From: Thermodesulfobacteriota bacterium
GTDB taxonomy: Bacteria > Desulfobacterota > Desulfobulbia > Desulfobulbales > SURF-16
Assembly: GCA_049323935.1 (NCBI GenBank)
Contig: JBMONN010000004.1
Coordinates: forward strand, 16,486 to 80,485
Direction of reading: 5' to 3'
DNA: 64,000 nt
The notes below the pieces were generated by a model. That model was given only the letters and a program-made list of their open reading frames with translations. It was not told the DNA's origin and did no database searches. Each line of letters opens with the position of its first letter. Within the stretch, counting starts at the first letter, position 1. A program made the position numbers and the translations under genes. Below, in pieces: positions 2,457 through 38,875 of this stretch.

Positions 2457-2457
2457 G

Positions 2458-4852: not shown

Positions 4853-4855
4853 GCG

Positions 4856-9133: not shown

Positions 9134-9150
9134 GGTGTCTGCCCCCCCTG

Positions 9151-12158: not shown

Positions 12159-14459
12159 ATGAAAATGTCATTGCCGACCTTCACCCTTGCCTCTCTTGTC
12201 GTCGCTCTGTTTGTGTTCTGCTCCTGCTCTCCGGACGCCAACAGGAAGGTGGAATTTTATGAAAAAGGACGCGCCAGCCTGCAGGCGAACAACGTCAAGG
12301 AGGCGATCATCGAACTGCGCAATGCCGTGCAGCTTGATCCGAAATATGTCGAGGCCCGCTATCAGCTCGGTCTTGCCTATCTCAGGGATAATAATCCCAG
12401 ACAGGCGTTCGAGGAATTGACCAGGGTCTGTTCGCTTGCCCCACAGCACGTCGATGCCCATCTGCGGGTGGCCCGCCTGCTTTTTGAGGGCAAGCGGATA
12501 GCCGAGGCAAGATCCTTTCTCGACAAGGTGCTCGATGGCGCGGCCGCAAACGAGGAGGCCCAGCTGCTTCTTGCCGATATGGAGCTGGCCGACAATCATG
12601 CCGACCGGGCGGCAGAGGTGATCGACAAGATTGTCGCCAGCAATCCGCAAAGCGAAGCGGCCTTTGCCCGCAAGGCGCAGCTCCTTGCCATCGGCAAAAA
12701 ATATCCGGAGGCCGAGGCGGCGATCAGGCAGGCGATTACCCTTATGCCGGACAATTTCGTCAATCACCAGTTTCTCGTTTCACTGTTGCTGGAGCAGGGG
12801 AAAAGCGAAGAGGCCAAGTCCTATCTCGATCAGTTGACCGCCCGCTATCCGGAACAGGCGGAACCCCTGCTCGGACTGGCGGCGCTGCACATGAAACTGC
12901 ATGACTACGGGCAGGCCGCAGCCACCATCGAACAGGCCCTGTGTCTGCAACCGGGCGAAACCAGGCTGTATCTTCTCCTGGCGGACATCCTGGTGCAGGA
13001 CAAAAAGGCCGACAGGGTTGACAAGACGTTGCGGGACGCCCTTGCCCTGGCCAAGGAGCCGCTCACCATCCGTGCCGCCCTCGCGAATTACCTCTGTGAA
13101 ATGGGCCGTTTTGCCGAGGCAACGGCCGAGGTGGCGATCATCCTGCAAGAGAACAACCGCCACCCCCTGGCCAATCTGGTCCGGGCCCGCCTGTTGCTGC
13201 AGGAAGGGAAGAACAGCGAGGCCCTTGCCGCCCTCGCTGAGTTGATCCAGCAGCAGCCTGACTGGGGTGAGGCCTATTATTACCAGGCCCGTGCCCAGCT
13301 TGGGGCAGGGCGGCAGGAGCTCGCTCATCAGGCGGCAATCCAGGCGGTCAAATTCAGCCCCAGGGACGGCAAAAGCCATCTGCTCCTGGCCCGGCTGCTG
13401 CTCGACCAGGGTGATTTCGCCGGCGCCGGCCGGGAGGCGGCCGTGGCCGGCCGGCTTGATCCGGCAAGCGTAGCGGCGGCAATCATTTACGGCCGCAGCC
13501 TGCTGGGCATGAAGGAGTATGACAAGGCGGCGGCTGTTTTTGAAAAAATCCTTGCCAAACAAGGAGAGAACGCCGAGCTGTTCAGCCTGCTGGGCCAGAC
13601 CCGGGCCGCCATGGGGGACAGGGAGAAGGCGGCGGCCCTCTTTGAGAAGGCGCTCGCCCTGGCGCCTGCTTCGACCAGGGATCTGCAGGCCGTCGCCCGC
13701 ATCGCTCTCGGGCAGGGCAAAAAGAAGGAAGCACTGGCGCGGGTCGAAGAGCAGATTGCCCTGGCGCCGGATCATCTCGACCATCTGCTGCTGCTTGGCA
13801 CCATCGCCCTGGAGGTCCGCGATTTCGGGCGGGCGGTGGAGGCGTTCCGGCGCGCCCGGCAGCAAGGGCCGGAAAAAATCGAACCCTATATCTTGCTGGG
13901 CGATGCCTTGGTCAAATCCGGCCAGCCCGATCTGGCCGCGCAGGAGTTTCAGACCATTCTCGCCAAAAAAACCGACCATATCCCGGCGCTGATGGGCCTG
14001 GCCAATCTCCATGTGCTGCAAGGGAGAAAGCAGGAGGCCCGCGAACGCTATCGTCGCATCCTCTCGCTGCAGCCGGAGCAGCCGATTGCCGCCAACAACC
14101 TGGCCATGCTCATCCTCGACGAGGACAAGCCCGACCTCGGCGAGGCCCTGCGACTCGCCAGCCTGGCCAAGGAAAAGCAGCCGAACAATGCCGCCATCAT
14201 CGATACCCTGGGCTGGGTCCATTACATTCGCAAATCCTATGCCCTTGCCGAGGCGGAGTTTCGTCAGGCGGTCCGTCTCGCCCCGGATAACCCGCTCTTT
14301 GCCCAACACCTCGAGCTGGCGGCCAAGGAGGCGCAAAGTAAAAAGCGGCAGGAGGGCTATGCCAGCGGCCGCGAGCAGTTTGATCCCGCCGGCCTATCCC
14401 TGGAAGGGCAGACAGGCGAAGACAAGGGGAGGCAGGACGAGGTGCCGCGCGGCTGGTAG
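12159..14459 (+). CDS. PrsT-like PEP-CTERM-system TPR-repeat lipoprotein
   Basis: Signal/lipobox-like N-terminus (LVVALFVFCSCSP). The opening segment YEKGRASLQANNVKEAIIELRNAVQLDPKYVEARYQLGLAYL is typical of PrsT, and TPRs continue along all 766 aa. It sits directly after the HK and sigma54 RR and directly before PEP-CTERM genes. Confidence 0.7.
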   Translation: MKMSLPTFTLASLVVALFVFCSCSPDANRKVEFYEKGRASLQANNVKEAIIELRNAVQLDPKYVEARYQLGLAYLRDNNPRQAFEELTRVCSLAPQHVDAHLRVARLLFEGKRIAEARSFLDKVLDGAAANEEAQLLLADMELADNHADRAAEVIDKIVASNPQSEAAFARKAQLLAIGKKYPEAEAAIRQAITLMPDNFVNHQFLVSLLLEQGKSEEAKSYLDQLTARYPEQAEPLLGLAALHMKLHDYGQAAATIEQALCLQPGETRLYLLLADILVQDKKADRVDKTLRDALALAKEPLTIRAALANYLCEMGRFAEATAEVAIILQENNRHPLANLVRARLLLQEGKNSEALAALAELIQQQPDWGEAYYYQARAQLGAGRQELAHQAAIQAVKFSPRDGKSHLLLARLLLDQGDFAGAGREAAVAGRLDPASVAAAIIYGRSLLGMKEYDKAAAVFEKILAKQGENAELFSLLGQTRAAMGDREKAAALFEKALALAPASTRDLQAVARIALGQGKKKEALARVEEQIALAPDHLDHLLLLGTIALEVRDFGRAVEAFRRARQQGPEKIEPYILLGDALVKSGQPDLAAQEFQTILAKKTDHIPALMGLANLHVLQGRKQEARERYRRILSLQPEQPIAANNLAMLILDEDKPDLGEALRLASLAKEKQPNNAAIIDTLGWVHYIRKSYALAEAEFRQAVRLAPDNPLFAQHLELAAKEAQSKKRQEGYASGREQFDPAGLSLEGQTGEDKGRQDEVPRGW

Positions 14460-14584
14460 ACCGGGGCGTTTTTTTTGCAAACGTCATCTCCTGTGCGGCG
14501 GCCTGTCTGGCGCAAGCGGCAGGATGAGCGGGCGGCGCCGAGGGAAGGAGATAAGGATATCGGCATGATTACCCATGCGGCAAA

Positions 14585-14607
14585 TTCCGTTTTCCGGGAA
14601 AACGGAA
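14585..14607. promoter_or_regulatory. Perfect 11-1-11 palindrome TTCCGTTTTCC-G-GGAAAACGGAA (candidate enhancer-binding-protein site / UAS), unit 1
   Basis: Read directly from the sequence. It overlaps a second inverted repeat, CCGGGAAA-N9-TTTCCCGG (14595-14619). It lies ~175 nt upstream of the sigma54-like promoter at 14781 and is conserved (1 mismatch) at the same relative place in unit 2 (19195). Confidence 0.5.
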
Positions 14608-14780
14608 CGGTTTCCCGGATTTTTCCGGCGTGCTATTGGCTGAAAACCGGCCGCCGGGGCGATCGGCCCTTCCGCTACGCTGTGGTGGCGGAGGTGTAAC
14701 CTGTTGCAATACGGATTAAAAAATGGTCGTCCGCCTGGAAAGTGGCAAGGAGGATCGATGTTGTTCTTTTTGGAAGAAAA

Positions 14781-14796
14781 CGGAATGGATTTTGCA
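14781..14796 (+). promoter_or_regulatory. Candidate sigma54 promoter of the PEP-CTERM gene, unit 1
   Basis: CGGAATGGATTTTGCA has exact GG-N10-GC spacing and a strong -12 TTTGCA. It lies 70 nt before the ATG at 14866. The same 15-mer recurs at 19389-19403 in unit 2. Confidence 0.45.
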
Positions 14797-14865
14797 AAAA
14801 AAAATTAAATAATTTGTGCCTGCCAGTCTGTAACAACACGAATACCTGACAAAAAGGAGACAAAA

Positions 14866-15540
14866 ATGAAAAAACACAAAACTGGGATACTGGCAACGGC
14901 CTTGGCCCTGGGCATCACTGCCTCGCCGGCCATGGCAGCCATCGATCTGTTCGACTGGGCGTTTTATGTTGATGGAACCACATATGAGTTGACGGCCGGA
15001 GATTCGATGCCGACCTCGGGCACCTTGGTCGACGGCCTCGGCAGCCTTACCTGGTCGACCAGTGTTGCCGGCAGTCACACCTTTCTTGCCTTTTTCGATC
15101 TGGAGATAGACGAAGCGGTCAATACCTATTTTAATGAATACGGCGCCGCCCATGGCAGTGCCGCAGCCGGTCAATCCTGGGAGATCGATGAGCCTGGCTA
15201 TCTGTTTGGCGATATTTATAACAATCTGCTGGCCGGGTCGCTGGATAACAGCAATGGTGTTCCGGTAAGTTTTCCAGATGACGTCTCCTTTGCCCTGGGC
15301 TGGGATTTTACCCTTGGCGTCGGTGAGACGGCGACCATCGTCCTCAACCTGACCAACGCCGCGCCGCAGGCCGGTTTTTTTCTCAGCCAGACTGATCCTG
15401 ACAGCGCTGAAAGTGTATATTTTTCCAGCACCCTGCGGACGAGCGGTGAGCCTATTCCCGAACCAGCCACCATGCTGCTGATGGGGACCGGGCTGGCCGG
15501 CCTCTTCGGGGTGGGCCGCAAACGGATGAAGAAGGCGTAA
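14866..15540 (+). CDS. PEP-CTERM sorting-domain protein (small secreted protein)
   Basis: Signal peptide MKKHKTGILATALALGITASPAMA. C-terminus ...SGEPIPEPATMLLMGTGLAGLFGVGRKRMKKA carries a PEP motif, a hydrophobic helix and a basic tail. RBS AAAGGAG upstream. Confidence 0.85.
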   Translation: MKKHKTGILATALALGITASPAMAAIDLFDWAFYVDGTTYELTAGDSMPTSGTLVDGLGSLTWSTSVAGSHTFLAFFDLEIDEAVNTYFNEYGAAHGSAAAGQSWEIDEPGYLFGDIYNNLLAGSLDNSNGVPVSFPDDVSFALGWDFTLGVGETATIVLNLTNAAPQAGFFLSQTDPDSAESVYFSSTLRTSGEPIPEPATMLLMGTGLAGLFGVGRKRMKKA

Positions 15541-15558
15541 GGCGGCAGGATGGCGCTG

Positions 15559-15578
15559 CCGTTTTCGGGGGAAAACGG
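15559..15578 (+). other. Intergenic hairpin CCGTTTTC-GGGG-GAAAACGG between the PEP-CTERM gene and the large gene (unit 1)
   Basis: 8-bp perfect stem with a 4-nt loop. It shares the CGTTTTC/GAAAACG core with the upstream palindrome. It recurs at 19834-19853 with one mismatch. No T-tract follows it. Confidence 0.4.
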
Positions 15579-15652
15579 GAGGAGCCGACTGCGGACGTCG
15601 AGCATGACAACAAACGGGAGAAGTGAATAACACGGAAGATAAAGGGGGAAAA

Positions 15653-18169
15653 ATGAAGAATCGAAAAGCCTACACCATTGCGGCCCTGACCGGGGTCGGC
15701 CTGCTGCTGTCGGCCTCGCTGGCCTCGGCGGCGGTGAGCAGAATACTCTGTGTGCCCTGGCAGGGGAATCCGAATGCCCCGCATACCGCCATCAGTGGCC
15801 AGGCGGTGAAGTTGACCGCTGTCATTTACGGCGATGCGACCGGCGGCTCGGTCAGTTATTCCTGGGATTTTCAGGACGGCACCGCGCCGGCCAGCGGCAC
15901 CATTGCCGTCCCCGCCAACGGCGTTTACAACCTGGAGGTGACCCACACCTACAGTGCAGCGGTGAACACCCCGTTCACCACCACCTTGAGTATGGACGGC
16001 AAATCCGACACCTATAAGATCCTCATCGCTCCGGACAACAACGACTCCAAAACCAACATCGCCATCGACAAGGCCCTCTGGTACCTGCATAAAGACATGG
16101 TGCGGACCACCGCCGGTTCACCTGCGGTGCCGGCCGGCTACTGGAACGACTATTCCTACTATGTCGGGCGGTCCGGGGCGCCGGTCTGGGCTTTCGAGGT
16201 GCAGGGGCATCTGCTCAGCGTGGAGGCCAATCCCCTGCAGCCGCTGGAAGACCCCTATGTCGATGATGTCCAGCGGGGCATCAACTACATCCTGAGCAGG
16301 ACATATGCCCAGAGCATGAACGCCCAGACCCATGGCCATCCGGAGGATTATGACGGCGACGGCGATGGTGACGAGGGCAACGGCTATGGCCTTGTTGCCT
16401 ATTATGACAGCGGTCATACCAACTATGAGCAGGGACTTGCCATGGGAGCCATTGCCGGTTCCGGGGCGCCGGACGCTGTGGCGGCCACCGGCCAGGCGAC
16501 CTATGTGCTCGGGCGCACCTATCGGGACATCGTCCAGGATATGGCTGACTGGTATGGCTGGAGCCAGATCGACGGCACCGCTTTTCCGCCGAGCGGCGCC
16601 CTGGGCGGCTGGTATTATACGGCGGCGAATAATACGGGATGGAACCCGAATTATGGCGACAACTCCGCCTCCCAGTGGGCCTATATCGGCCTTGAAGCAG
16701 CCCAGAACAATTTCGGCGCGGCAATTCCCACCTGGGTGAAGACCAGGCTGGCCGGCTATCTCCACAACCAGATCGCCTACAACAACCGGGGCTTTGTCTC
16801 CTATCGCTCCGGCTACTCTTGGTATAGTGACTTTACCACCCCGAACGTCTGTCTGACCGGTGGCGCCCTGGTCGGCATGAAGCTGGTCGGTCAGAGCCTC
16901 TACGATGCCCAGAACGGCGCCGGCAGCTACAGCACCGATCTCAATCTGGCCACCACCTTTCTCGGCAACAACTGGCTCGGCCAGGCAAATCGATGGACGG
17001 AGAACTGGTACGGCCACCGCGCCTATTACACCATGTACGCCATCATGAAGGGCCTGCGGCTGCACAGCCTCGACTCGCTGCCCGGCACCCCCGGCACCGC
17101 TGACTGGTATGGCGATTATGTCGGCGTCATGCTGCCGGATCAGTATGCGGACGGTCACTGGCGCGGCACCGGCTGGATGGATGGCTACATCGTCAACGAC
17201 ATGGGGACCGCCTTTGGCGTGCTGATCCTCACTCCGAGCGTCTTTTCGCCGCCGCCGGTGGCCTGTTTCAACGCCAACCCCAATCCCGGCTACATGGACG
17301 TGCCGATCTCCTTTGATCCGTCCTGTTCGTACCATTCCGACGGGACAAAATCCATTGTCCTCTATGAGTGGGATTTCGACAACGACGGCGTTTATGATGT
17401 GACCTCGACCACCCCGGATGTCCAGACATTTACCTGGGATGACGCCACCTATGACCTTGGCACCTATCCGGTCACCCTGCGGGTAACCGATGACTCGGAC
17501 GACCCGGTAACGGATACCGCCACGATTGATGTCAATTTGACCCTGCCGCCTCATCCGCCGGTGGCCGATGCCGGTGGCCCCTATATGACCACCCAGTGCG
17601 GCGCCGACTCCCTGACGCTTGATGGCTCCGGCTCCTTTGATATTGACGAGGGGACCAGTGAAAGCGGCAACCCGCCGTTTGATACCATCACCGACTGGGC
17701 GTGGGATCTTGACAACGCGCCATGGGATTATGTCAATGAGAGTGGTGAAAGCGTTGCCCTGAGCGCTGCCGACATTGCCACCTATTTCACCTTGGGTGAG
17801 AAGCAGATCGGCCTGAAGGTAACGGACAACACGGCAGCGGCCTATCCGGGCAGCCAGCAGCCCGATCTGACCGGTGAGGGATTTGACACGGTTACCGTCT
17901 ATGATGACTGCCTGTGTACCCTGAGTGCCCGTGCCAAGCTGAATAAGGTGCAACTGGTCTGGGCCAATACCGGTGCCGCCAGTTATGACATCTATCGCAG
18001 CACGATCGGGCCGAACAGCGGCTTCAGCCTGATTAAGGATAACCTTGTCACCAGCTACGCCACCTATCTGGACAGCGGTTTGACGATCGGCACCCCCTAC
18101 TGGTATCGGGTCGTTGACAGCAATGGCTGCGGTTCGGTAGCGGTAAAAGTTGTTCCGACAACCCGCTAA
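15653..18169 (+). CDS. Large secreted multidomain protein: PKD-like + alpha/alpha-toroid-like (prenyltransferase/terpene-cyclase-like repeats) + PKD-like x2 + FN3-like C-terminus (paralog A)
   Basis: RBS AAAGGGGGA precedes the ATG at 15653. Signal peptide MKNRKAYTIAALTGVGLLLSASLASA. PKD-type signatures: SYSWDFQDGT, YEWDFDNDGVYD...VTLRVTDD, and WAWDLDN...GLKVTDN. The central Trp/Tyr/Gly-rich region (ALWYLHKD..., NSASQWAYIGLEAA...) resembles prenyltransferase/squalene-cyclase repeats. The C-terminus (VQLVWANTGAASYDIYRS...YWYRVV) resembles FN3. Confidence 0.8.
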   Translation: MKNRKAYTIAALTGVGLLLSASLASAAVSRILCVPWQGNPNAPHTAISGQAVKLTAVIYGDATGGSVSYSWDFQDGTAPASGTIAVPANGVYNLEVTHTYSAAVNTPFTTTLSMDGKSDTYKILIAPDNNDSKTNIAIDKALWYLHKDMVRTTAGSPAVPAGYWNDYSYYVGRSGAPVWAFEVQGHLLSVEANPLQPLEDPYVDDVQRGINYILSRTYAQSMNAQTHGHPEDYDGDGDGDEGNGYGLVAYYDSGHTNYEQGLAMGAIAGSGAPDAVAATGQATYVLGRTYRDIVQDMADWYGWSQIDGTAFPPSGALGGWYYTAANNTGWNPNYGDNSASQWAYIGLEAAQNNFGAAIPTWVKTRLAGYLHNQIAYNNRGFVSYRSGYSWYSDFTTPNVCLTGGALVGMKLVGQSLYDAQNGAGSYSTDLNLATTFLGNNWLGQANRWTENWYGHRAYYTMYAIMKGLRLHSLDSLPGTPGTADWYGDYVGVMLPDQYADGHWRGTGWMDGYIVNDMGTAFGVLILTPSVFSPPPVACFNANPNPGYMDVPISFDPSCSYHSDGTKSIVLYEWDFDNDGVYDVTSTTPDVQTFTWDDATYDLGTYPVTLRVTDDSDDPVTDTATIDVNLTLPPHPPVADAGGPYMTTQCGADSLTLDGSGSFDIDEGTSESGNPPFDTITDWAWDLDNAPWDYVNESGESVALSAADIATYFTLGEKQIGLKVTDNTAAAYPGSQQPDLTGEGFDTVTVYDDCLCTLSARAKLNKVQLVWANTGAASYDIYRSTIGPNSGFSLIKDNLVTSYATYLDSGLTIGTPYWYRVVDSNGCGSVAVKVVPTTR

Positions 18170-18200
18170 GGCAGCACGGCGCCTGAAGAGGCGACGTATT

Positions 18201-18241
18201 CAACACGCCGGCGATCGACGACCGCCGGCGTGTTGTCTTTT
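18201..18241 (+). terminator. Rho-independent terminator after paralog A
   Basis: AACACGCCGGCG-(loop)-CGCCGGCGTGTT stem followed by GTCTTTT. Confidence 0.65.
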
Positions 18242-18269
18242 CCCCGCTAAACATCTTTTTTTAGTGGCC

Positions 18270-19106
18270 ATGGCAACCTTCCATTCGTTTTTCCGATTTC
18301 TTCCCAGGGGAAGCAGTCTTGCCGCCGTCATAGCCGTGCTCAGTCTGCTTTTTGTCTTTCCAGCGTCAGGGGTGGCTGCCGAGGCGCCGTCCTTTACTCT
18401 CAAGGTGACTGACTCCCGCATCGACCTTGTGGCCAACGAGGCGCCACTTGGTGAAATCCTCACCGCGATTTCCCGGGAATTCCGGCTTACTTTACGGGCC
18501 GCAGAGCTCCCTGGTGAGCTGACGAGCTGCCGGCTGGCCTCTGTTCCCCTTGAACAGGGGCTGGAGAAACTACTGGAGAGCTGGAATTATGCCTTGCTTT
18601 ACAAAAAAGAGGGTCAGGGCCGCGCCCTGCCGGACATTCTCTGGGTTATGAATCGCAATCCGAACCGTGTGGTTGTCGAGAGGCGAGGGGAGCCCGGGAG
18701 TCAGGGGGGGGCAAGGGAGCAGCTGCTGCCGCAGGAAGAGGGTGGAAAAAGTTATCGGAAAGAGGATATCGCCGCAGTCTTTGCCGATGGCGATACGGTG
18801 TTGCTCGACATTGACGTCCGCCCGGCCGATGGCTCGGAATTTGGCGAAGCGGCGTCGCAGCCCATGCCTGAGGAAGAAGAGCGGCCGCTGGGAATAAAAA
18901 TCACCCGGCTCGCCGAAACCTCGCCGATCAATATGATTGGACTGCGGGAAGGGGATGTGGTGAGGGATGTGAACGGGGCTGCAGTGGGGTCAGCCGCAGA
19001 TCTGGTTCGCTCCCTGGCAGGAGCCGCAACGGGAGGTGTGACGACACTCCGCATCGAACGATGGCGGGATGGACAGATGGCCCCGCTTTATCTGGAAATG
19101 CGATAG
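18270..19106 (+). CDS. Single-pass membrane protein with STN-like (secretin/TonB N-terminal-like) domain and C-terminal PDZ domain (unit 1)
   Basis: MATFHSFFRFLPRGSSLAAVIAVLSLLFVF (TM/signal). The segment IDLVANEAPLGEILTAISREFRLTL...VPLEQGLEKLLESWNYALLYKK follows the STN/N0 pattern. C-terminus GIKITRLAETSPINMIGLREGDVVRDVNGAAVGSAADLVRSL is a PDZ signature. Confidence 0.7.
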   Translation: MATFHSFFRFLPRGSSLAAVIAVLSLLFVFPASGVAAEAPSFTLKVTDSRIDLVANEAPLGEILTAISREFRLTLRAAELPGELTSCRLASVPLEQGLEKLLESWNYALLYKKEGQGRALPDILWVMNRNPNRVVVERRGEPGSQGGAREQLLPQEEGGKSYRKEDIAAVFADGDTVLLDIDVRPADGSEFGEAASQPMPEEEERPLGIKITRLAETSPINMIGLREGDVVRDVNGAAVGSAADLVRSLAGAATGGVTTLRIERWRDGQMAPLYLEMR

Positions 19107-19194
19107 GCGGGTTGACCATCCGGGTCCGTTGTCCGAAAATGACCAGGGCTGGCGCAAAGCAAAGGGATGTCGTGATGTGTATCCAGTCGGGAAA

Positions 19195-19217
19195 TTCCGT
19201 TTTCCGGGAAAGCGGAA
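19195..19217. promoter_or_regulatory. Palindrome TTCCGTTTTCC-G-GGAAAGCGGAA (unit 2 copy, 1 mismatch)
   Basis: Same relative position as 14585-14607. The flanking GGTTTCCCGGA(C/T)TTTTCCGGCGTGCT is also conserved. Confidence 0.45.
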
Positions 19218-19387
19218 CGGTTTCCCGGACTTTTCCGGCGTGCTTTTTGCCGAAAGAGGGATCGTGCCGGCCGGCCCTTCCTTCCACTCTGTGGTGGTTG
19301 GGGTGTAACCTGTTGCAATACGGATAAAAAAATGATCGGCGTGGGGAAGAAAAGGGCGGATGGCGGCAACTGTTCTTTTTGGGCGCC

Positions 19388-19403
19388 GGGGAATGGATTT
19401 TGC
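19388..19403 (+). promoter_or_regulatory. Candidate sigma54 promoter, unit 2
   Basis: GGGAATGGATTTTGCA has GG-N10-GC spacing and is identical to unit 1 except at its first base. Confidence 0.4.
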
Positions 19404-19439
19404 AAATTCAGTTTAGATAATTTGTTTCACAGTCTGCGA

Positions 19440-19815
19440 CGGCACGAATGCCTGACAAGAATAAAGGGTCCATAGCTGGGATTCCGTCAATGGCCCTGGG
19501 CCTCATTGCCTCGCCGGCCATGGTAGCCATCGAAAATAACTTCGGCTGGGCGGGTGAAGACGTCTCCTTTGCCATGGGCAGGATTTCACTCTCGGGGGAG
19601 ACGAAACGGCAACCATTGCCCTGGATCTTTCCGATATAATGCCAGAGGGGCTTTTATCTGAGCCAGACGGGCCATGAAAGTGGCAAGATGTTTATCTTTC
19701 CAGGGCCCTGCGGACGAGCGGTGAGCCAATTCCCGAGCCAGCCACCATGCTGCTGATGGGGAGCGGGCTGGCCGGCCTCTTCGGGGTGAGCCGCAAAAGA
19801 ATGAAAAAGGGATAA
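19440..19815 (+). pseudogene. Decayed paralog of the PEP-CTERM protein gene
   Basis: Homologous to 14866-15540 at both ends: ...GCCCTGGGCCTCATTGCCTCGCCGGCCATGG... and ...CTGCGGACGAGCGGTGAGCCAATTCCCGAGCCAGCCACCATGCTGCTGATGGGG...AAAAGAATGAAAAAGGGATAA. The RBS and start region are mutated, ~300 nt of the middle are missing, and the frame is broken. The PEP-CTERM tail is no longer in frame with the 63-aa ORF at 19448. Confidence 0.7.
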
Positions 19816-19833
19816 GTCGGCAGGTTGGCGCTG

Positions 19834-19853
19834 TTGTTTTCGGGGGAAAACGG
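19834..19853 (+). other. Intergenic hairpin TTGTTTTC-GGGG-GAAAACGG (unit 2 copy)
   Basis: Counterpart of 15559-15578, with one stem mismatch. Confidence 0.3.
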
Positions 19854-19933
19854 GGAAGTCGCCTGTGGTGCAATATCAATGCGGATGAAAACGAATGGGG
19901 AGAAGTGACGAAATGCAGATAAAGGGGGAAAAA

Positions 19934-22900
19934 ATGAAGAATCGGAAAGCATACACCATTGCGGCCCTGACCGGGGTCGCCCTGTTGCTGTCGGCCTCAT
20001 TGGCATCGGCGGCGGTCAGCAAAGTTCGCGCGATACCCTGGCAGGGAGATCCAACGAAGTATCATACGGCAATTGCCACTGAATCATCGTCCTGGAATAC
20101 AAGCGGGAGCGATAATGTCTTGCGGGTCAGAGGGGAGGCCAAAAGTGGCAGCTATATTTCCTGGATCAGGGCCGTTATCACCAGGGGCGGTAGTACGGAA
20201 AGGGTGTGTCTTTATGATGTGAACGGCGGGAATTGCACGGAAACAAATTTGTGCACCGCTTCATACAGCGACGCCGCATTCGATCAGTCGACCAATATCG
20301 CTGCCTCGCCGATTCCGGATTCCATTACCCTGGAGGTCCTCGGGACCAATTGCTCATCCTCAAGACAGGTGGAACTCCTCCAGAACGGGGTAAGCGTCGG
20401 GGGGGCGGAGATAAATACCGCTTATGACTGCACCTGTACTCCTGCTTTGCAAAGCCCAACCCTTGCTGGTGCCAGCGGGGCGAGATTGAAAGGTGTAATC
20501 GACACCACGAATACCGATACCGTATGGTATCGGTGGGACTTTGGCGATGGTTCCATGTCTGATGTGACCGCGTTGAGTGGCAAAACCCGCTATAATGTCG
20601 CAGCCAATCATGCCTACAGCGGCACACCAGGGGCACCATTTACCGCTCGACTGCTGGTCGATGGAGTGGACAATAGCATGACCCATGCAATTGCCGATTC
20701 CTACCTGGTGAAACTTGAAGCTGATACCCTTGATGCCAGGATTAATGTGGCAATTGACGAAGGCCTCTGGTGGCTCTACCAGCAAGGGAACAATCTGGGC
20801 GGTTATGCCAGTTATCCTCGCACGTACGACGGGTCCCCGTACATGACCTGGCTGCAAACAAGTTATGTCTATACCCTGGTGACGCCGACCGCCTCGGCCG
20901 TTCATGCCTTCGGCATCAACGGCCACAAGATGAAGGGCAATGTCAATGAGGACCCCTATGTCGAGGCCGTGCAACAGGGGATGAACTACCTGGTCAAAGG
21001 GTACAACTTATACCCGACCTATCCGGCGCTCCGAGCCAGTGCGATCAGCTCAGTCAATCATGGCGGGGTTATCGACAACCCCGAGGCAGGTCAAGCTGCC
21101 CCCAACGGCTACGGGATAGAGGTCTATGATTGGGGCGGCAGCCACATTCCCTATCAGAGCGGCCAGATCATGGACGCCATCATCGCCTCCGGGGTCAGTC
21201 CCACTGATCTGACCGGACGGGATTTCACCCGGACCGATGCCACCGTTGTCCGCAACTGGACCTACGGCGAACTGTTGCAGGACATGGCCGATATGCACGC
21301 CTGGGGACAATCCGACTCGACCGGATGTAACGGCGGGGTGTGTGGTTCCTGGTGGTATGGTTGGAATTATGGATTCCCGGGCGATAACTCGGCCAGCCAG
21401 TGGGGCGCGATCGGCATGCTGCCGGCCCAGCAGCCCCCCTGGAATGTGGTCGTCCCGGCCTGGGTAAAAAATTACAACGCCAACTGGCTGGCCTACAGCA
21501 TGGGCTGCAGCGGCCCCTCCGCGGCGGTGACGTCCTGCAGTAATAATTTTTTCAGCTATAACGGCGTGGGTGGCTGCGCCGGCGATAACTGCCAGCAGAC
21601 CACCACCTCCGGCATGGTGCAGATGATCTTCGATGGCCAGACCACCGCTGATCTCAAGTGGGGCAGGGCGCAGAAAAAAATTGCCGACGAGTGGCGTTCC
21701 TTCCTGCACGATGGTTCAAACTGGGGAGGATATCGCACCTATGGTTGGTACTCCTTTGCCAAGGCCATGCGCCTGTCGTTGCCTGAATCAACCACCCAGC
21801 TCGTGAAAACCGGCGGCGCCAGCTTTGACTGGTACTATGGCGATCCGACCACCACTGCCTGCACCACCGAGGCCAACTGCGAGAAGGGCCTGGCCCAGCG
21901 CATCCTGGAGACTCAGGCTGCCGATGGCCAATGGCCAAGCGGCAACCTGACCAACCCGCCGCTGACCACCGCCTGGATGATCATCACCCTCAAGCCGTCA
22001 CTCTTTGCCTCGTCGCCCATTGCCTGCTTTGACTACAGTCCCAAATCGACCTATTCCGGCGACACGGTGAGCTTTGATCCGACCTGTTCCGGCCATTCGG
22101 AGCCGGGCAAGACCATTGCCAACCTGACCAAATTCGAGTGGGATTGGGACAACGATGGTGATTACGATGCGGAAACCACGACACCCGACATGGTGACCAA
22201 TGTCTTCACCTGTGACACGCCGCCCTGCACCTTCCCGGTGACACTGCGGGTCACCGATGACAACGATCCGGCCCTCACCGCCACGGTCAAGCAGAATGTC
22301 GCGATCACCAATCCGCCCCATCCGCCCACTGCGGATGCCGGCGGCCCGTATATGACGTCACTCTGCCCTGCTGACTCCTTAACCCTGGATGGGTCGGCCT
22401 CCTTTGACCCGAACGAAGGCGAGTACGAGGCCGGGTGCACCGACTGTGATCCCGATACCATCACTGCCTGGGAGTGGGATCTGACCCCGCCCCTCACCGG
22501 TTTTGACGATGAATCCGGTGAAACAGTGACTGTCGCGCCGGGGACGTATTTCGCCGCGGCCGGCAACCAGGATGTCGGCCTGCGGGTTACCGACAATACG
22601 GTCGAATCCTTCCCGGGCAGTGGCGAACCCAATCTGACTGATACCGATTTCGGTACGGTCGCTGTTGCCGATGATTGTCTCTGCACCCTCACCGCCAGGG
22701 CCAAGCTGAACAAGGTGCAGTTGGTCTGGGCCAATACCGGTGCCGCCAGCTATGACATCTACCGCAGCACGACCGGCCCCAACACCGGCTTCAGCCTGAT
22801 TAAGGATAACCTCGTCACCAGCTATGCCACCTATCTGGACAGTGGACTGACGATCGGCGTTCCTTACTGGTACCGAGTCGTTGACAGCAATGGCTGTGGT

Positions 22901-22936
22901 TCTGTCGCTGTTCGTGTCGTCCCGGTAAGCAGATAG
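19934..22936 (+). CDS. Large secreted multidomain protein, paralog B (extra N-terminal Cys-containing beta-rich insert + PKD-like + toroid-like + PKD-like x2 + FN3-like)
   Basis: RBS AAAGGGGGA precedes the ATG at 19934. The signal peptide MKNRKAYTIAALTGVALLLSASLASA is nearly identical to paralog A. PKD-type signatures: WYRWDFGDGS, FEWDWDNDGDYD...VTLRVTDDND, and WEWDL...GLRVTDN. Toroid-like centre (GLWWLYQQG..., NSASQWGAIGMLPA...). The last ~85 aa are nearly identical to paralog A. Confidence 0.8.
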   Translation: MKNRKAYTIAALTGVALLLSASLASAAVSKVRAIPWQGDPTKYHTAIATESSSWNTSGSDNVLRVRGEAKSGSYISWIRAVITRGGSTERVCLYDVNGGNCTETNLCTASYSDAAFDQSTNIAASPIPDSITLEVLGTNCSSSRQVELLQNGVSVGGAEINTAYDCTCTPALQSPTLAGASGARLKGVIDTTNTDTVWYRWDFGDGSMSDVTALSGKTRYNVAANHAYSGTPGAPFTARLLVDGVDNSMTHAIADSYLVKLEADTLDARINVAIDEGLWWLYQQGNNLGGYASYPRTYDGSPYMTWLQTSYVYTLVTPTASAVHAFGINGHKMKGNVNEDPYVEAVQQGMNYLVKGYNLYPTYPALRASAISSVNHGGVIDNPEAGQAAPNGYGIEVYDWGGSHIPYQSGQIMDAIIASGVSPTDLTGRDFTRTDATVVRNWTYGELLQDMADMHAWGQSDSTGCNGGVCGSWWYGWNYGFPGDNSASQWGAIGMLPAQQPPWNVVVPAWVKNYNANWLAYSMGCSGPSAAVTSCSNNFFSYNGVGGCAGDNCQQTTTSGMVQMIFDGQTTADLKWGRAQKKIADEWRSFLHDGSNWGGYRTYGWYSFAKAMRLSLPESTTQLVKTGGASFDWYYGDPTTTACTTEANCEKGLAQRILETQAADGQWPSGNLTNPPLTTAWMIITLKPSLFASSPIACFDYSPKSTYSGDTVSFDPTCSGHSEPGKTIANLTKFEWDWDNDGDYDAETTTPDMVTNVFTCDTPPCTFPVTLRVTDDNDPALTATVKQNVAITNPPHPPTADAGGPYMTSLCPADSLTLDGSASFDPNEGEYEAGCTDCDPDTITAWEWDLTPPLTGFDDESGETVTVAPGTYFAAAGNQDVGLRVTDNTVESFPGSGEPNLTDTDFGTVAVADDCLCTLTARAKLNKVQLVWANTGAASYDIYRSTTGPNTGFSLIKDNLVTSYATYLDSGLTIGVPYWYRVVDSNGCGSVAVRVVPVSR

Positions 22937-22970
22937 TTTTTTCTGAAGCCGTTTCATGTCGTGACCCTTG

Positions 22971-23014
22971 CCCCAAGCCGGCAGCCTCCCCAGGCTGCCG
23001 GCTTGGGGTTTTTG
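22971..23014 (+). terminator. Rho-independent terminator after paralog B
   Basis: CCCCAAGCCGGCAGCC-(TCCCCA)-GGCTGCCGGCTTGGGG, a 16-bp perfect stem followed by TTTTTG. Confidence 0.8.
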
Positions 23015-23045
23015 TGAGGGGGAATTTTTTTTAACCGTCCACACA

Positions 23046-23846
23046 ATGGCACATACAAATTTATCCTTTTTGGACTCGAACAGGGGCAGGACGTTTCGTG
23101 TCGTGGCCTTGGTTGTGGTGTTTTGGCTGGGCATCGCTGTCTTGCCGGTGCATGCGGGCGCCCCGCCCCCAGCCTTTACCATTGAAATGCATGATTCCCT
23201 GCTGGATATCACGGCGGAGAATGTGCCGCTGCGGCAGATTCTTGATGCGATTACCCAGAGGTCTGGGCTCATCCTGCGCTTTGCCGATCAGGATGGGGAG
23301 CTGGTTTCCTGCCATCTGACCTCCGTCAGTCTGCCGGAAAGTCTGGAGAAGATCCTGGGGAACTGGAATTATGCCCTGGTCTACAAAAAAGACCGTCAGG
23401 GGCGTTCTGTTCCCGACACGCTGTGGGTCATCAATAGAAACCCGCAGAGAATGACCGTTGATGTCGCGGCTGATGGACAGCGACTCACCCGGATAGGCGG
23501 CGCTGACTCGGTTGGGCGCGAAAATTTGCCGAAATTCAAGAAGGATGATATTCGCTCCGTTTTCGCGGATAGGGAAAAAATTCTAACAGACGTTGAGGCA
23601 GCGCCCTATTCTGTTGGCGAACACAACGAAGGGGTCGAGATCACCACTCTTGCCGATACCTCACCATTAAAGTTGATCGGCCTGCAAACAGGCGACGTGG
23701 TTCGTAATATTAATGGACAGGCGGTAAACTCGGCCGAAGAACTTGTCAACGCTTTCGCCACCCCCATTCCCGCCGATGTGTCAGTTGTCCGCATCGAAAG
23801 GCATCGTGACGGACGTATTGAGACAATTTATCTGCATTTGGAGTAA
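23046..23846 (+). CDS. Single-pass membrane protein with STN-like domain and C-terminal PDZ domain (unit 2 paralog)
   Basis: MAHTNLSF...FRVVALVVVFWLGIAVLPV (TM helix). LDITAENVPLRQILDAITQRSGLILRF...VSLPESLEKILGNWNYALVYKK. PDZ-like GVEITTLADTSPLKLIGLQTGDVVRNINGQAVNSAEELV. Collinear with 18270-19106. Confidence 0.7.
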   Translation: MAHTNLSFLDSNRGRTFRVVALVVVFWLGIAVLPVHAGAPPPAFTIEMHDSLLDITAENVPLRQILDAITQRSGLILRFADQDGELVSCHLTSVSLPESLEKILGNWNYALVYKKDRQGRSVPDTLWVINRNPQRMTVDVAADGQRLTRIGGADSVGRENLPKFKKDDIRSVFADREKILTDVEAAPYSVGEHNEGVEITTLADTSPLKLIGLQTGDVVRNINGQAVNSAEELVNAFATPIPADVSVVRIERHRDGRIETIYLHLE

Positions 23847-24290
23847 TGGACAGTCGGGACGGATTTTGCGGGAAGACGCACTGTACAAAAAATGACCAGC
23901 GCTGGCCTGTTGCTCGCCAGTATGTGTCGACAGGAGGGTGGGCAGGGATTTTTTTTGTCTTTTTTTATTTGTAAAATCAGAATGTTATTCGATGTTTTTC
24001 TTTCGTCGTTTTTTTCTTGTTGTTGGCATCTTTCCTGCTCTATTATCTAACTGCGATATGTCCCCCGCATATTGAGAGGTTCCTTCCCCCTTTTGTTGCT
24101 CTGATGCCGAGCTGGTTTGCCTTCCCCCGGCGGATCGGCTCGGCTCATTCAGCATCTCGGCAGCGCGGTCAGCTCGTAGCGTTTCCTGCGGGCCGCTCGC
24201 CGGCGCATCTTCTCGCCTGCCCATCCATTTCCCGTTTCCAGCCGCGGTTTTTTCGCGACTCGGCTACATCGCAAAACTGCATTGGTGAAC

Positions 24291-24839
24291 ATGAAAGAAT
24301 TGGTCATAGTGGTCGATACCGCAGACAATGAAGTCGGCAGCGAAGAGAAGTTTGCCGTCCATGCCAATGGCCTGCTGCACCGGGCCTTTTCTCTCTTTGT
24401 CTTCAATTCGCAGGGCAACTTGTTGCTTCAGCAGCGGAACCGGAATAAGTATCACACGCCTGGCCTGTGGAGCAATACCTGTTGCAGTCATCCGCGGCCC
24501 GGCGAAACCCTCGACGCCGCGGTGCGACGTCGGTTGCTGGAGGAGATGGGATTTTGCTGTGATGTGAAAGAGATATTTAGTTTCCGTTATGAATTGCCGT
24601 TGGAAAATACTATGATAGAACATGAGTACAACCATGTCTTTATCGGCTTTCATGACGGCGATCCGTTGCCGAATCCGGCCGAGGTCGAGGCGTGGCGTTG
24701 GCTTTCCCTGGCCGAGGTGCGCGCCGAGGCCGCCAGAGGGCCGCATCTCTTTACCCCGTGGTTTACGCTGATCCTGCACGACTACGGGCATCTTTTTGAT
24801 AAGGCACTGACGGCTGGCAAGGCGGGAAAACGAAAATGA
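24291..24839 (+). CDS. idi: Isopentenyl-diphosphate delta-isomerase, type 1 (Nudix)
   Basis: GLLHRAFSLFVFNSQGNLLLQQR...KYHTPGLWSNTCCSHPRPGE...RRLLEEMG...EHEYNHVF is the classic IDI-1 signature (catalytic Cys in TCCSHP, plus the Nudix-like box). GTG 24282 is an alternative start. Confidence 0.85.
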   Translation: MKELVIVVDTADNEVGSEEKFAVHANGLLHRAFSLFVFNSQGNLLLQQRNRNKYHTPGLWSNTCCSHPRPGETLDAAVRRRLLEEMGFCCDVKEIFSFRYELPLENTMIEHEYNHVFIGFHDGDPLPNPAEVEAWRWLSLAEVRAEAARGPHLFTPWFTLILHDYGHLFDKALTAGKAGKRK

Positions 24840-26071
24840 CAACGACGGAAAGAGAAAAAAGAAAGGTTGGGCTCTGGCTCATCGGCGCACGCGGTTCAAT
24901 TGCCGCCACCGTCATGCTCGGTGCCTCCGCCCTGCGCCGGGGAGAGACCGCGGCCACCGGCCTGGTGACCGCGGCAGCCCCCTTTGCCGGTCTTGACCTG
25001 CTGCCGGTGACGGATTTCGTTTTCGGTGGCTGCGATATCCGCCGGCAATCATTGCGGGACGCGGCCCGCCAGGCCATGGCCGAAGGGGTGGCGCTGGATC
25101 AGTCCTTTCTTGACCGGATCGGCCCGGAACTTGACGAGGTGGAGAGCGACATCAGCCCCGGCACCTGCCGCAACTGCGGAGAGATGATCGCCGGTCTGGC
25201 CGAGCAGGCTGTTGCGGGCAAAACGGTGAGTGCGGAGCTCGCCGAAATCCGTCGGCAGCTCAGTGCCTTTCGCGCCAAACGGCGGCTCGGCAGGGTCATA
25301 GTGATCAATCTTGCCTCCACCGAGCCGCCCCTGCCGCTTACCCCCCTTCACCATGACCCGGAGCTGTTTGTCGAGCGGATCGCCGCCAATGACGGCGAGG
25401 CGGTCCAGGCCAGCACCCTCTATGCCTATGCCGCCATTCTCGAAGGCTGCCCCTACATCAACTTTACGCCGTCCAGCGGCGCGTTGATCCCGGCCCTGGT
25501 CCGGCTCGCCGAGCAAAGCGGGGTACCGGTGATGGGCAATGACGGCAAGACCGGCGAGACCCTGGTGAAATCGGCGCTCGCCCCCCTCTTTCTCTCCCGC
25601 AACCTGGAGATCCTGAGCTGGGAAGGGGTCAACATGCTGGGCAACATGGACGGTCAGGTGTTGAACGACCCCCGCAATTGCCAGTCCAAGCTCAAATCAA
25701 AAGATCAGGTGCTGCGCAATATCATGGGTTACGAACCCCACTCCCGGGTCCATATCCACTATGTGCCGTCGTTGGGCGATCAGAAGACCGCCTGGGATTT
25801 CATCCATTTCCAGGGCTTTCTCGGGGTCAGGATGTCGCTGCAGTTCACCTGGCAGGGTTATGACTCCATTCTCGCCGCCCCCCTGGTCCTTGACCTGGCC
25901 CGGCTCGCCGATCTGGCCCACCGGCACGGCGAGGGCGGCCTGATGCCCCAGCTTGCCAGTTTTTTCAAATCCCCTCTCGGCGTGACGGAATACCGCCATG
26001 CCGCCCAGTATGCCATGCTCACCGACTATGCGGCAAAAAAAAGAGAGATCAATGAGCCATCCCATCAATGA
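24836..26071 (+). CDS. myo-Inositol-1-phosphate synthase family protein (sugar-phosphate cyclase)
   Basis: ATGA overlap with idi. N-terminal Rossmann segment VGLWLIGARGSIAATV. Conserved blocks: YINFTPS, GVPVMGNDGKTGETLVKSALAPLF, LSWEGVNMLGNMDGQVL, KSKDQVL, and GDQKTAWDFIHFQGFLG...SILAAPLVLDLARL. Confidence 0.75.
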   Translation: MTTTEREKRKVGLWLIGARGSIAATVMLGASALRRGETAATGLVTAAAPFAGLDLLPVTDFVFGGCDIRRQSLRDAARQAMAEGVALDQSFLDRIGPELDEVESDISPGTCRNCGEMIAGLAEQAVAGKTVSAELAEIRRQLSAFRAKRRLGRVIVINLASTEPPLPLTPLHHDPELFVERIAANDGEAVQASTLYAYAAILEGCPYINFTPSSGALIPALVRLAEQSGVPVMGNDGKTGETLVKSALAPLFLSRNLEILSWEGVNMLGNMDGQVLNDPRNCQSKLKSKDQVLRNIMGYEPHSRVHIHYVPSLGDQKTAWDFIHFQGFLGVRMSLQFTWQGYDSILAAPLVLDLARLADLAHRHGEGGLMPQLASFFKSPLGVTEYRHAAQYAMLTDYAAKKREINEPSHQ

Positions 26072-26093
26072 AAAATGCAAGGAGGCAGCACCA

Positions 26094-26807: not shown

Positions 26808-26827
26808 ATTGCAGGAAAGGAGAGACG

Positions 26828-29679: not shown

Positions 29680-29693
29680 GGTGGGAACGGGAC

Positions 29694-30533: not shown

Positions 30534-30536
30534 GCC

Positions 30537-31421: not shown

Positions 31422-31463
31422 TGACGACTGCCGGCAATGCCCGGCCTCTGTGCTGGCAAAATT

Positions 31464-31597
31464 GATGAAATCGTAAAACTGAAAATTAACCACAGAGACT
31501 GCGGAACGCACAGAGATAACTAATTGTAACTAAAGATGTTTTCTCTGTGCTCTCAGTGTGCTCTGTGGTGAAAAAAGACTTTTTACGGGTTCATCAA
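31464..31597 (+). repeat. Full copy of MITE/REP-like palindromic element (between UbiA and AP-family genes)
   Basis: GATGAAATCGTAAAA...AACCACAGAGAC..GCACAGAGATAAC...TTCTCTGTGCTCTCAGTGTGCTCTGTGGTGAAAAAAGACTTTTTACGGGTTCATC. Terminal inverted blocks CGTAAAA/TTTTACG; CACAGAG occurs twice and CTCTGTG twice. It aligns along its full length (roughly 85% identity by eye) with 56424-56552. Confidence 0.7.
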
Positions 31598-31614
31598 AAT
31601 AAGGAGAGAATGCG

Positions 31615-37680: not shown

Positions 37681-37747
37681 CGGCGGATGAGGTCGGGTTG
37701 CAAAGGATTGACGCGGGCATGCGGTGAAAAAAGGAGAGAGAGACGAG

Positions 37748-38836: not shown

Positions 38837-38875
38837 CAAGGCCGCCCTGGCCGCTGCGCAAGGAGAACAACCATC

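Follow-up and report, generated by a model that had tools for sequence, protein, structure and literature searches.

What do two abutting gene units of the same build, lying downstream of a two-component system in the DNA of a Thermodesulfobacteriota bacterium, do for the cell? The question arises from a 64-kb window, that is, the whole stretch of DNA analysed here, on which all coordinates are given. Each unit carries, in the same order, a 23-bp palindrome, a -24/-12 promoter-like element, a gene for a small PEP-CTERM protein (decayed in unit 2), a gene for a large exported protein with a probable helical toroid (BIG1 in unit 1, BIG2 in unit 2), a terminator hairpin and a gene for a small PDZ protein. 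All these parts had been listed in a preliminary description made from the sequence alone, and every one of them was found at or near the place assigned to it. In our main reading, to which we give a probability of about one half, they form a surface module under sigma-54 control that is linked to an exosortase, connected with a terpenoid-cyclitol pathway and present as two diverged paralogous units. The frame of PEP-CTERM protein, sigma-54 and PrsT is already known. As far as our searches show, neither the dedicated large partner with its toroid nor the STN-PDZ family nor the linkage to an ebo-like cluster has been described in the literature searched, in which nothing was found that combines PEP-CTERM, PKD, squalene, exosortase and TonB, and in which YdjY had incidental mentions only.

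Anatomy and origin of the two units

The features of the two units, in the order of their coordinates, are:

14585..14607, no strand: 23-bp perfect palindrome TTCCGTTTTCCGGGAAAACGGAA, exact, unit 1; candidate enhancer (upstream activator site) for a sigma-54 activator
14782..14796, + strand: sigma-54-like -24/-12 element GGAATGGATTTTGCA (GG-N10-GC), unit 1, 84 nt upstream of the PEP-CTERM start
14866..15540, + strand: PEP-CTERM protein of 224 aa, with a distant PepA-like N-domain and a sorting tail, unit 1
15559..15578, + strand: hairpin CCGTTTTC-GGGG-GAAAACGG between the PEP-CTERM stop and BIG1, -27.6 kcal/mol, z -4.1; conserved in unit 2
15653..18169, + strand: BIG1, 838 aa, with signal peptide, PKD, toroid, PKD, Ig-like and FN3 regions (Pfam, AlphaFold2, hhalign); clade A
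18202..18241, + strand: intrinsic-terminator-like hairpin 3' of BIG1, -30.4 kcal/mol, z -4.1
18270..19106, + strand: STN(N0)-PDZ protein 1, 278 aa, with a probable cleavable signal peptide (PDZ matches in Pfam; N-domain profile)
19195..19217, no strand: palindrome copy, unit 2, with one mismatch; nearly identical in the sister genome L008
19390..19404, + strand: sigma-54-like -24/-12 element GGAATGGATTTTGCA, unit 2, about 80 nt upstream of the PEP-CTERM remnant; conserved in L008
about 19440..19815, + strand: decayed PEP-CTERM gene, unit 2, with the start lost, about 330 bp lost internally and the tail kept (DNA alignment with unit 1)
19834..19853, + strand: copy of the unit-1 hairpin, between the remnant of the PEP-CTERM gene and BIG2, -21.5 kcal/mol, z -3.4
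19934..22936, + strand: BIG2, 1000 aa, with the architecture of BIG1 (from its identity to BIG1) and, close to the N-terminus, an additional Cys-rich insert of some 160 aa; clade B
22970..23015, + strand: strong intrinsic terminator 3' of BIG2, with an 18-bp stem of 13 GC pairs and a T-run, -45.9 kcal/mol, z -7.2
23046..23846, + strand: STN(N0)-PDZ protein 2, 266 aa, 40% identical to protein 1

For comparison, a scan of the GTDB species representatives gave 234 loci with relatives of the large protein, from many phyla. The analysed set comprised the best 80 of these 234 loci and seven loci fetched earlier (cited below by their L numbers). Word-indexed protein searches under-reported the large-protein and the STN-PDZ families (34 and 5-16 matches, respectively), which the genome scan and an exhaustive HMMER search put right. 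The sister metagenome-assembled genome (MAG) L008, of 98% identity, has the same two-unit arrangement as the window and was the reference for the pN/pS ratios of the window genes.

The resemblance of the units had been described as a tandem duplication. Two like units are indeed present, but they are not the product of a fresh duplication: BIG1 and BIG2 (838 vs 1000 aa) share 42% amino acid identity end to end (E 4e-165) and belong to two old clades. Clade A joins BIG1 to L001, L002 and L009, at 64-74% identity, and clade B joins BIG2 to L004, L015, L016, L007 and L036, at 54-83% identity (54-63% to L004, L015, L016 and L036), whereas identity between the clades is only 38-46%. A 4.24-Mb Desulfobacterales genome possesses both clades, 1.9 Mb apart, each accompanied by a kinase, a sigma-54 regulator, YdjY, a toroid and a TonB receptor of its own. 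At the DNA level the identity of unit 1 to unit 2 is a mosaic, reaching 70-80% in the regulatory region, 90% in the PEP tail, 87% in the signal peptide of the large protein and 86-87% in its FN3 end, and 43-65% in the remainder of the units. Since the large proteins fall in separate old clades, which lie 1.9 Mb apart in the Desulfobacterales genome, the units of the window are, judging from these sequence relationships, two ancient paralogous modules that were put in tandem and whose ends were homogenised, presumably by gene conversion.

Comparison with L008 gave pN/pS values of 0.10 for BIG1, 0.17 for BIG2, and 0.26 and 0.38 for the small proteins 1 and 2; by this measure both units are under purifying selection. 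The remnant of the PEP-CTERM gene in unit 2 has decayed differently in the window and in L008, while the palindrome and the -24/-12 element are almost identical in the two genomes. Unit 2 has kept the switch and lost a small protein of its own, and the low pN/pS values, together with a unit-2 promoter kept in L008 while the PEP-CTERM gene decays, suggest that both units are functional.

A short conserved tail, AAAATGACCAG[G/C]GCTGGC, lies 3' of each STN-PDZ gene (19128-19150 and 23886-23908) and marks the end of the repeat unit. L008 has a further copy, 3' of its first STN-PDZ gene.

The large protein and its small partner

Pfam recognised PKD domains in the large protein, at residues 44-103 and 549-627, with nothing between them; the PKD segments match at 2.6e-10 and 4.2e-10. 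A search against NCBIfam gave no match. The AlphaFold2 (AF2) model of BIG1, built on an alignment of 27 sequences (pLDDT 83.6, pTM 0.77), consists of a beta domain at residues 28-126, a block of about 12 helices with good pLDDT at 130-526 and further beta domains at 540-833. The central block is related to a second toroid protein of the window, encoded 9 kb downstream:

26828-28018, + strand: 396-aa periplasmic SQHop-type toroid, with signal peptide (Pfam SQHop_cyclase_C)

The profile of the central domain aligned with that of the 396-aa family end to end, over 308 columns (hhalign probability 96.95%, E 1.3e-10). The 396-aa protein scores 34.1 bits against Pfam SQHop_cyclase_C (cut-off 26.1), and the profile of its family gives 9.3e-9 with squalene-hopene cyclase (2sqc) and about 1e-3 with class II sesquiterpene cyclases. 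It is by profile-profile comparison only that the relation of the large protein to this toroid is detected, BLASTP between the two giving a non-significant E of 0.46. A QDxxD motif is common to BIG1, BIG2 and the 396-aa protein, and the C-terminus of the large protein matches the Fn3-like structure 3mpc (1.1e-5). The PKD segments, the prenyltransferase or terpene-cyclase type alpha/alpha toroid and the FN3-like C-terminus that had been proposed from the letters alone are therefore all supported. With the toroids of terpenoid cyclases and prenyltransferases (squalene-hopene cyclase, class II sesquiterpene cyclases, MstE) the large protein shares a probable helical toroid, prenyltransferase-type 'GGW...D.S..W' repeats and the profile-profile homology to the SQHop_cyclase_C family. 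Unlike them, its toroid is extracytoplasmic, set among PKD, Ig and FN3 domains, without DxDD and without a direct Pfam match.

A signal peptide followed by PKD, an alpha/alpha barrel and FN3 is a layout typical of secreted carbohydrate-active enzymes. The large protein, which resembles them in this layout and whose central domain has many conserved Trp, Tyr and Asp residues, could accordingly be a secreted glycoside hydrolase or lyase of the (alpha/alpha)6 type that is fitted with PKD/FN3 spacers and remodels the exopolysaccharide around the PEP-CTERM protein, in which case the ebo-type neighbours would be coincidental. The association of PEP-CTERM systems with exopolysaccharide loci (PMC1569441) and the shift that PepA causes in the balance of bound and soluble exopolysaccharide (PMC9850573) would agree with such a function. 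However, the Pfam, NCBIfam and PDB sequence searches gave no glycoside hydrolase or lyase match, the sole significant remote homology is to the SQHop_cyclase_C-type family, no exopolysaccharide biosynthesis genes were found in the window, and the recurrent neighbours are YdjY, the toroid and ebo-type genes, not glycosyltransferases. We consider a polysaccharide enzyme decidedly unlikely.

The layout of a toroid between Ig-like domains also recalls alpha-2-macroglobulin, complement and the thioester-containing proteins (TEPs), whose thioester domains (TEDs) belong to the same fold superfamily as the terpenoid cyclases. In a Foldseek search made with the whole chain of BIG1 only, complement C3, C4, C5 and TEP1 were among the matches (C3, C5 and TEP1 among the top ones), over about 1000 columns and with E values of 7e-9 to 5e-7, and a conserved D-N-S-x-S-Q-W motif is located where an inner helix starts. 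A TEP-like large protein would use its toroid as a (thio)ester domain that captures targets covalently or anchors the protein to the matrix. This is highly improbable, as the TM-scores are only about 0.2 and the Ig-like repeats dominate the matches, Pfam reports no A2M, MG or TED domain, and neither large protein has CGEQ or any C-x-x-Q. With CGEQ and DxDD both absent from the toroid, nothing points to a thioester or to the active site of a canonical class II cyclase. We also tried S338-x-x-Q341 of DNSASQW as an analogue of CGEQ and rejected it, there being no C-x-x-Q and the stretch aligning with a repeat of the stand-alone toroid that is of the ordinary prenyltransferase type.

The term giant, under which the large proteins had been introduced, overstates proteins of 838 and 1000 aa, although their relatives do reach about 5200 aa. 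The PKD-toroid module occurs inside giant proteins of 2000-5200 aa in Verrucomicrobiota, Planctomycetota and Gammaproteobacteria (L001, at 15233-22583; L027, L029, L042, L046-L050, L059, L066, L071 and L078), most of them without the small partner genes, and some giant relatives carry He_PIG, PASTA or cadherin-like repeats.

The small protein of unit 1 exceeds the curated cut-offs for the sorting signal (PF07589, 29 bits vs 20.7; TIGR02595, 21.8 bits vs 16), and its tail ends in IPEPATMLLMGTGLAGLFGVGRKRMKKA. End to end it resembles the flocculation protein PepA of Zoogloea and Aquincola (PMC9850573) weakly, at 28.6 bits against a floc_PepA cut-off of 80. The domain scores and the DNA alignment agree with the earlier view that the PEP-CTERM gene is intact in unit 1 and decayed in unit 2. 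Among the other loci all small partners are weakly similar to PepA, and none reaches a named NCBIfam PEP-CTERM subfamily. In Verrucomicrobia the small partner carries VPDSG-CTERM (26.9 bits, cut-off 22) instead of PEP-CTERM. Because the tag is PEP-CTERM in most lineages and VPDSG-CTERM in Verrucomicrobia, the N-domain and an exosortase-type anchor are conserved jointly with the large protein.

The recurrence of partner genes was counted in 33 well-flanked short-form loci, that is, loci with a complete gene of <=1200 aa and >=900 bp on either side:

PEP-CTERM N-domain homolog directly adjacent to the large gene: 26/33
STN-PDZ gene directly 3' of the large gene: 12/33
stand-alone toroid within 10 kb: 17/33
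YdjY within 10 kb: 18/33
ebo-type genes within 10 kb: 11/33
sigma-54 regulator within 10 kb: 13/33

The adjacency of small and large protein was seen in Desulfobacterota, Rhodocyclaceae, Nitrospirota, Planctomycetota, Acidobacteriota, Verrucomicrobiota, Methylococcaceae and Brocadiaceae, whereas STN-PDZ genes occurred only in Desulfobacterota-type loci. Of the triad in the preliminary description, the pair of PEP-CTERM and large protein holds across many phyla and the whole triad does not. The proposed tie to the exosortase pathway is strengthened by this small partner, conserved beside the large protein across phyla with its tag swapped by lineage. PEP-CTERM proteins are very common in environmental bacteria, and the function and partners of individual ones are almost unknown; one PEP-CTERM family with a dedicated conserved partner in at least eight phyla, and with a tag fitted to the lineage, represents a concrete pair that can be tested.

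Candidate control regions and the STN-PDZ family

Three genes for regulatory proteins precede the module:

8860..10578, + strand: sensor histidine kinase, HAMP-HisKA-HATPase (Pfam)
10575..11969, + strand: sigma-54-dependent response regulator, REC-AAA+-HTH_8, NtrC-like (Sigma54_activat 1.4e-67)
12159..14459, + strand: PrsT, TPR protein of the PEP-CTERM regulatory system (TIGR02917 344.5 bits, cut-off 312.2)

The position of the units 3' of a kinase, a sigma-54 response regulator and a PrsT-like protein had been pointed out before, and the last of these scores above the cut-off as a true PrsT, which among the loci is present in the window and in L008 only. The kinase is most similar to AtoS and ZraS, all below cut-off, and the PrsK model (TIGR02916) is not among the best 25 of its 88 NCBIfam matches.

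PEP-CTERM genes preceded by sigma-54 sites, at a mean of 71 nt from the start, have been described together with PrsK, PrsR and PrsT (Haft et al. 2006, PMC1569441), and in Aquincola pepA is RpoN-dependent and adjoins prsT (PMC9850573). The module has much in common with these systems: a small secreted PEP-CTERM protein whose gene is preceded by a long non-coding stretch, a -24/-12 element some 80 nt before the start and, adjoining it, a sigma-54 activator, a kinase and a true PrsT. It differs from them in that its PEP-CTERM gene is coupled to a conserved large toroid gene instead of forming a single-gene operon, that the response regulator scores below the PrsR cut-off, that the upstream motif is a different palindrome, and that exosortase and exopolysaccharide genes are not present near the module.

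In the 64 kb the palindrome TTCCGTTTTCCGGGAAAACGGAA matches only at its two places, against 0 matches expected, and in both units it lies upstream of the -24/-12 element, at a distance of about 175 bp. A GG-N10-GC shortly upstream of a PEP-CTERM start, with a candidate activator site before it, is therefore found in the window, and was assigned to sigma-54 by pattern and position. Similar -24/-12-like elements are located upstream of the PEP-CTERM genes of L001, L002, L004 and L006. The hairpin between the PEP-CTERM and the large gene might act as an attenuator or an RNA-stability element. A GC-rich hairpin directly 3' of the large gene was present in 14/14 folded STN-PDZ units, two in the window and 12 in other loci.

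The gene behind this hairpin belongs to a real, unnamed family. An exhaustive HMMER search gave 86 clusters at E <= 1e-30, and about 120 of the best 150 matches are full-length, with 235-300 aa. The window copies match Pfam PDZ_2 and PDZ_6 at about 6e-6, just below the gathering score, PDZ is matched in 74/79 family members, and the family profile reaches the PDZ domains of RseP and DegP at 5e-17 to 1e-12. The N-terminal domain bears the N0/STN signature of secretins and TonB systems: its family profile reaches the N0 domain of PilQ (4ar0) at 2e-4, the six highest-ranking matches being PilQ chains, and Pfam STN is found in 4/7 and 17/79 family members (best 1.2e-5), with no match on STN-PDZ protein 1 taken alone. 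In the AF2 model residues 41-113 form a beta-beta-alpha-beta-beta-alpha-beta fold, with pLDDT about 80. The STN/N0-like domain of the preliminary description was in this way corroborated, but its single transmembrane anchor was not: read by eye, the N-termini of the family are signal-peptide-like, with A-x-A directly before the first strand. As they look like cleavable signal peptides, the mature protein is probably soluble in the periplasm. In the literature searched we found no description of a soluble protein of about 260 aa that fuses STN to PDZ; the family represents an undescribed pairing of a secretin/TonB N0 domain with PDZ in a probably soluble periplasmic protein, in at least 86 clusters.

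By analogy with GspC, the STN-PDZ protein had been proposed to be an adaptor, and as such it would bring the large protein to the secretin of a type II secretion system (T2SS). In Foldseek the best match of its model is indeed the PDZ domain of EpsC/GspC from Vibrio (7.8e-3), among PDZ matches only, none of which has E <= 0.001. The top NCBIfam match is GspC_delta (NF041515; 26.6 and 41 bits, the latter for unit 2 at 1.9e-10), the N-domain resembles the secretin N0 of PilQ, and the gene always lies directly 3' of the large gene, with which it has been duplicated. The likeness to GspC therefore stands for the fold of the C-terminal PDZ and for the envelope location, but membership of the GspC family does not. 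Both GspC_delta scores are far below the cut-off of 150 and cover the PDZ region only, TIGR01713 gives 25.1 bits against 101.6, an N0-like domain takes the place of the absent HR domain, and a probably cleaved signal peptide that of the GspC membrane anchor. Moreover, no T2SS genes occur in the window or in the inspected loci, the PDZs of RseP and DegP outscore that of GspC when the larger family profile is used, STN-PDZ is missing from most large-protein relatives' loci in other phyla, and the STN-PDZ tree departs from that of the large protein. A secretion adaptor is thus an unlikely role.

Alternatively, the protein could be a periplasmic signalling or feedback element, either a TonB-transducer signalling domain acting in trans or a PDZ sensor of the DegS/RseP type, that reports the state of a receptor or an exported protein to the kinase driving the sigma-54 promoters. 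A histidine kinase with a sigma-54 response regulator accompanies STN-PDZ in 8/9 loci of >=15 kb and occurs in 3/43 loci without it (p 1.9e-6, in a comparison that ignores shared ancestry, all STN-PDZ loci being Desulfobacterota-like). The TonB-dependent receptors of L001, L004 and L007 consist of Plug and barrel only, without an STN of their own, and the PDZ is in sequence nearest to the RseP and DegP sensors. Paralogs within one genome resemble each other and do not follow the large-protein clades, and a gene behind a terminator would fit a low-copy regulator. On the other hand, there is no TonB receptor in this window, and L028 and L075 have the kinase and regulator without STN-PDZ. Such a role is possible, though doubtful. 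Given the co-occurrence with kinase and regulator, the sequence relationships that are genome-specific and the place behind a terminator, we lean slightly towards a signalling link to the kinase over a secretion adaptor.

All large proteins linked to STN-PDZ end in Arg, a residue atypical in ligands of HtrA-type PDZ domains. Binding of this C-terminus by the PDZ domain found no support, the same FN3 ending being present in relatives without STN-PDZ.

Two loci vary the arrangement. L081 (6657-8746) contains two adjoining STN-PDZ genes, flanked by the genes of a short toroid protein of 771 aa and a long one of >2500 aa, and is another instance of module multiplication. In L006 (12432-13370) an unrelated protein of 312 aa, whose record lists no Pfam domain and which gave just a marginal HEAT_2 match in a lenient scan, occupies the place of STN-PDZ, and the kinase and sigma-54 regulator are retained.

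The ebo-like cluster and a model for the module

The linkage of the module with an ebo-like cluster, YdjY and a stand-alone toroid paralog had gone unnoticed in the preliminary description. The cluster is placed as follows:

24282..32955, + strand: ebo-like cluster, directly 3' of the module; the same genes adjoin the module in other loci

It encodes IDI, inositol-phosphate synthase, YdjY, the 396-aa periplasmic toroid, a TIM barrel, TatD, a second TIM barrel, an EboC-like UbiA and an EboF-like phosphodiesterase; both TIM barrels are xylose-isomerase-like and the phosphodiesterase is of the AlkP family. It resembles the described ebo (eboA-F) clusters for a prenylated cyclitol or a thallusin-type meroterpenoid (PMC5133447, PMC6282210) in having candidates for EboB (TatD), EboC (UbiA), EboE (a TIM barrel) and EboF (the phosphodiesterase). 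The UbiA protein scores 230.5 bits with the EboC model and the EboE model gives 37.7 bits only (cut-off 250 in each case); TatD and Phosphodiest were found by Pfam. The gene content fits the 'ino'-type ebo arrangement (preprint 10.64898/2026.05.21.724671), in which, as here, an inositol-phosphate synthase replaces EboD. The cluster differs from the described operon in the addition of IDI, YdjY and the periplasmic toroid, and in its linkage to the PEP-CTERM/large-protein module and a sigma-54 two-component system.

A further GG-N10-GC, TGGCATCTTTCCTGCT, was noted by eye at 24024-24039, about 245 nt upstream of the IDI gene, with no palindrome copy beside it; it suggests that the ebo-like operon may be sigma-54 dependent as well.

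A link has been reported between the core ebo genes and the meroterpenoid thallusin, for which no dedicated terpene cyclase is known (preprint 10.64898/2026.05.21.724671). The secreted 396-aa toroid could bear on this 'missing cyclase', yet it has a signal peptide and lacks DxDD. Toroid and periplasmic paralog tie the surface module to ebo-type clusters, whose products (scytonemin-precursor export, thallusin) are just being worked out and for which neither a terpene cyclase nor extracytoplasmic handling proteins are known.

What the data show is the build of the units, the identity of their domains, their conservation and the purifying selection on them; as to regulation, exosortase processing, ligand and the part played by STN-PDZ, we infer the following course of events. 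The adjacent histidine kinase would phosphorylate the NtrC-type regulator, which would bind the palindrome some 175 bp upstream of the -24/-12 promoter and switch on each unit; control by sigma-54 through the palindrome is proposed on account of the anatomy, the precedent of other PEP-CTERM genes (PMC1569441) and the RpoN-dependent pepA beside prsT (PMC9850573). The transcript of unit 1 would comprise the PepA-like PEP-CTERM gene, the hairpin and the large gene, and the terminator 3' of the large gene would reduce the transcription that runs on into the STN-PDZ gene. After export and cleavage by an exosortase, the small protein would be attached to the cell surface or matrix, where the Sec-exported large protein, holding its toroid on PKD/Ig/FN3 spacers, would act together with it. 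Both toroids, one in the periplasm and one outside, might bind or modify the isoprenoid part of a prenylated cyclitol or meroterpenoid, a role suggested by the fact that the periplasmic paralog of the large-protein toroid travels with YdjY and ebo-type genes. STN-PDZ would be a soluble periplasmic accessory specific to Desulfobacterota, its PDZ domain binding an exported partner and its N0-like domain docking by strand addition onto an envelope component that differs with the genome, either the periplasmic domain of the kinase or an outer-membrane channel.

Several results weigh against this reading. The window contains no exosortase gene, and the response regulator reaches 375.1 bits with the PrsR model TIGR02915, where 502.6 are required, with the NtrC and AtoC models scoring higher. 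The bare GG-N10-GC pattern is not rare (3 found vs 2.35 expected in the window), so that the weight of the element comes from its position and context; promoter-like sites elsewhere lie 234-651 bp from annotated starts. The palindrome sequence was not found in other genera, L004 having a different one. The central toroid has no direct match in Pfam or PDB sequence searches, where the profiles A1 and A4 gave PKD and FN3 only, and the toroid regions of BIG1 and BIG2, like the 396-aa protein, lack the DxDD acid motif; a catalytic cyclase role is consequently unsupported, and binding is only a guess. Ebo-type genes accompany only about a third of the well-flanked loci, and many relatives, giants above all, are without any partner gene within 10 kb. 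With regard to STN-PDZ, the AF2 model is weak overall (pLDDT 58), and the association with kinase and regulator is confounded by phylogeny. The mirror-tree comparison with the large protein gave r = 0.32, with no signal of co-evolution, which argues against a tight one-to-one pairing, the STN-PDZ sequences being related according to genome and not according to large-protein clade.

A broader proposal takes in further genes. The PEP-CTERM protein, the large toroid, the periplasmic toroid, YdjY and sometimes a TonB-dependent receptor might constitute an undescribed multi-phylum envelope system handling an ebo-type product (a prenylated cyclitol or a meroterpenoid like thallusin), with the toroids as extracytoplasmic isoprenoid receptors or as the 'missing' class II cyclases, the small protein tethering the outer toroid, and STN-PDZ coupling the system to the sigma-54 switch in Desulfobacterota. 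We put this forward tentatively, as a real chance that has the odds well against it.

The rest of the window yielded some minor observations. On the minus strand, at 36142-39145 and 41825-47222, there are long open reading frames of 576, 494, 703 and 989 aa with no Pfam match at the thresholds used, which might be uncharacterised genes or else, in DNA this rich in GC, artefacts of overlapping frames. Upstream of the kinase, at 1455-8427, lies a MoxR-DUF58-VWA-VWA/TPR-BatD operon of the Bat/aerotolerance-like kind. Two neighbouring ankyrin-repeat proteins of 354 and 569 aa are encoded at 39263-42036 on the minus strand, a pair unusual for a Thermodesulfobacteriota MAG.

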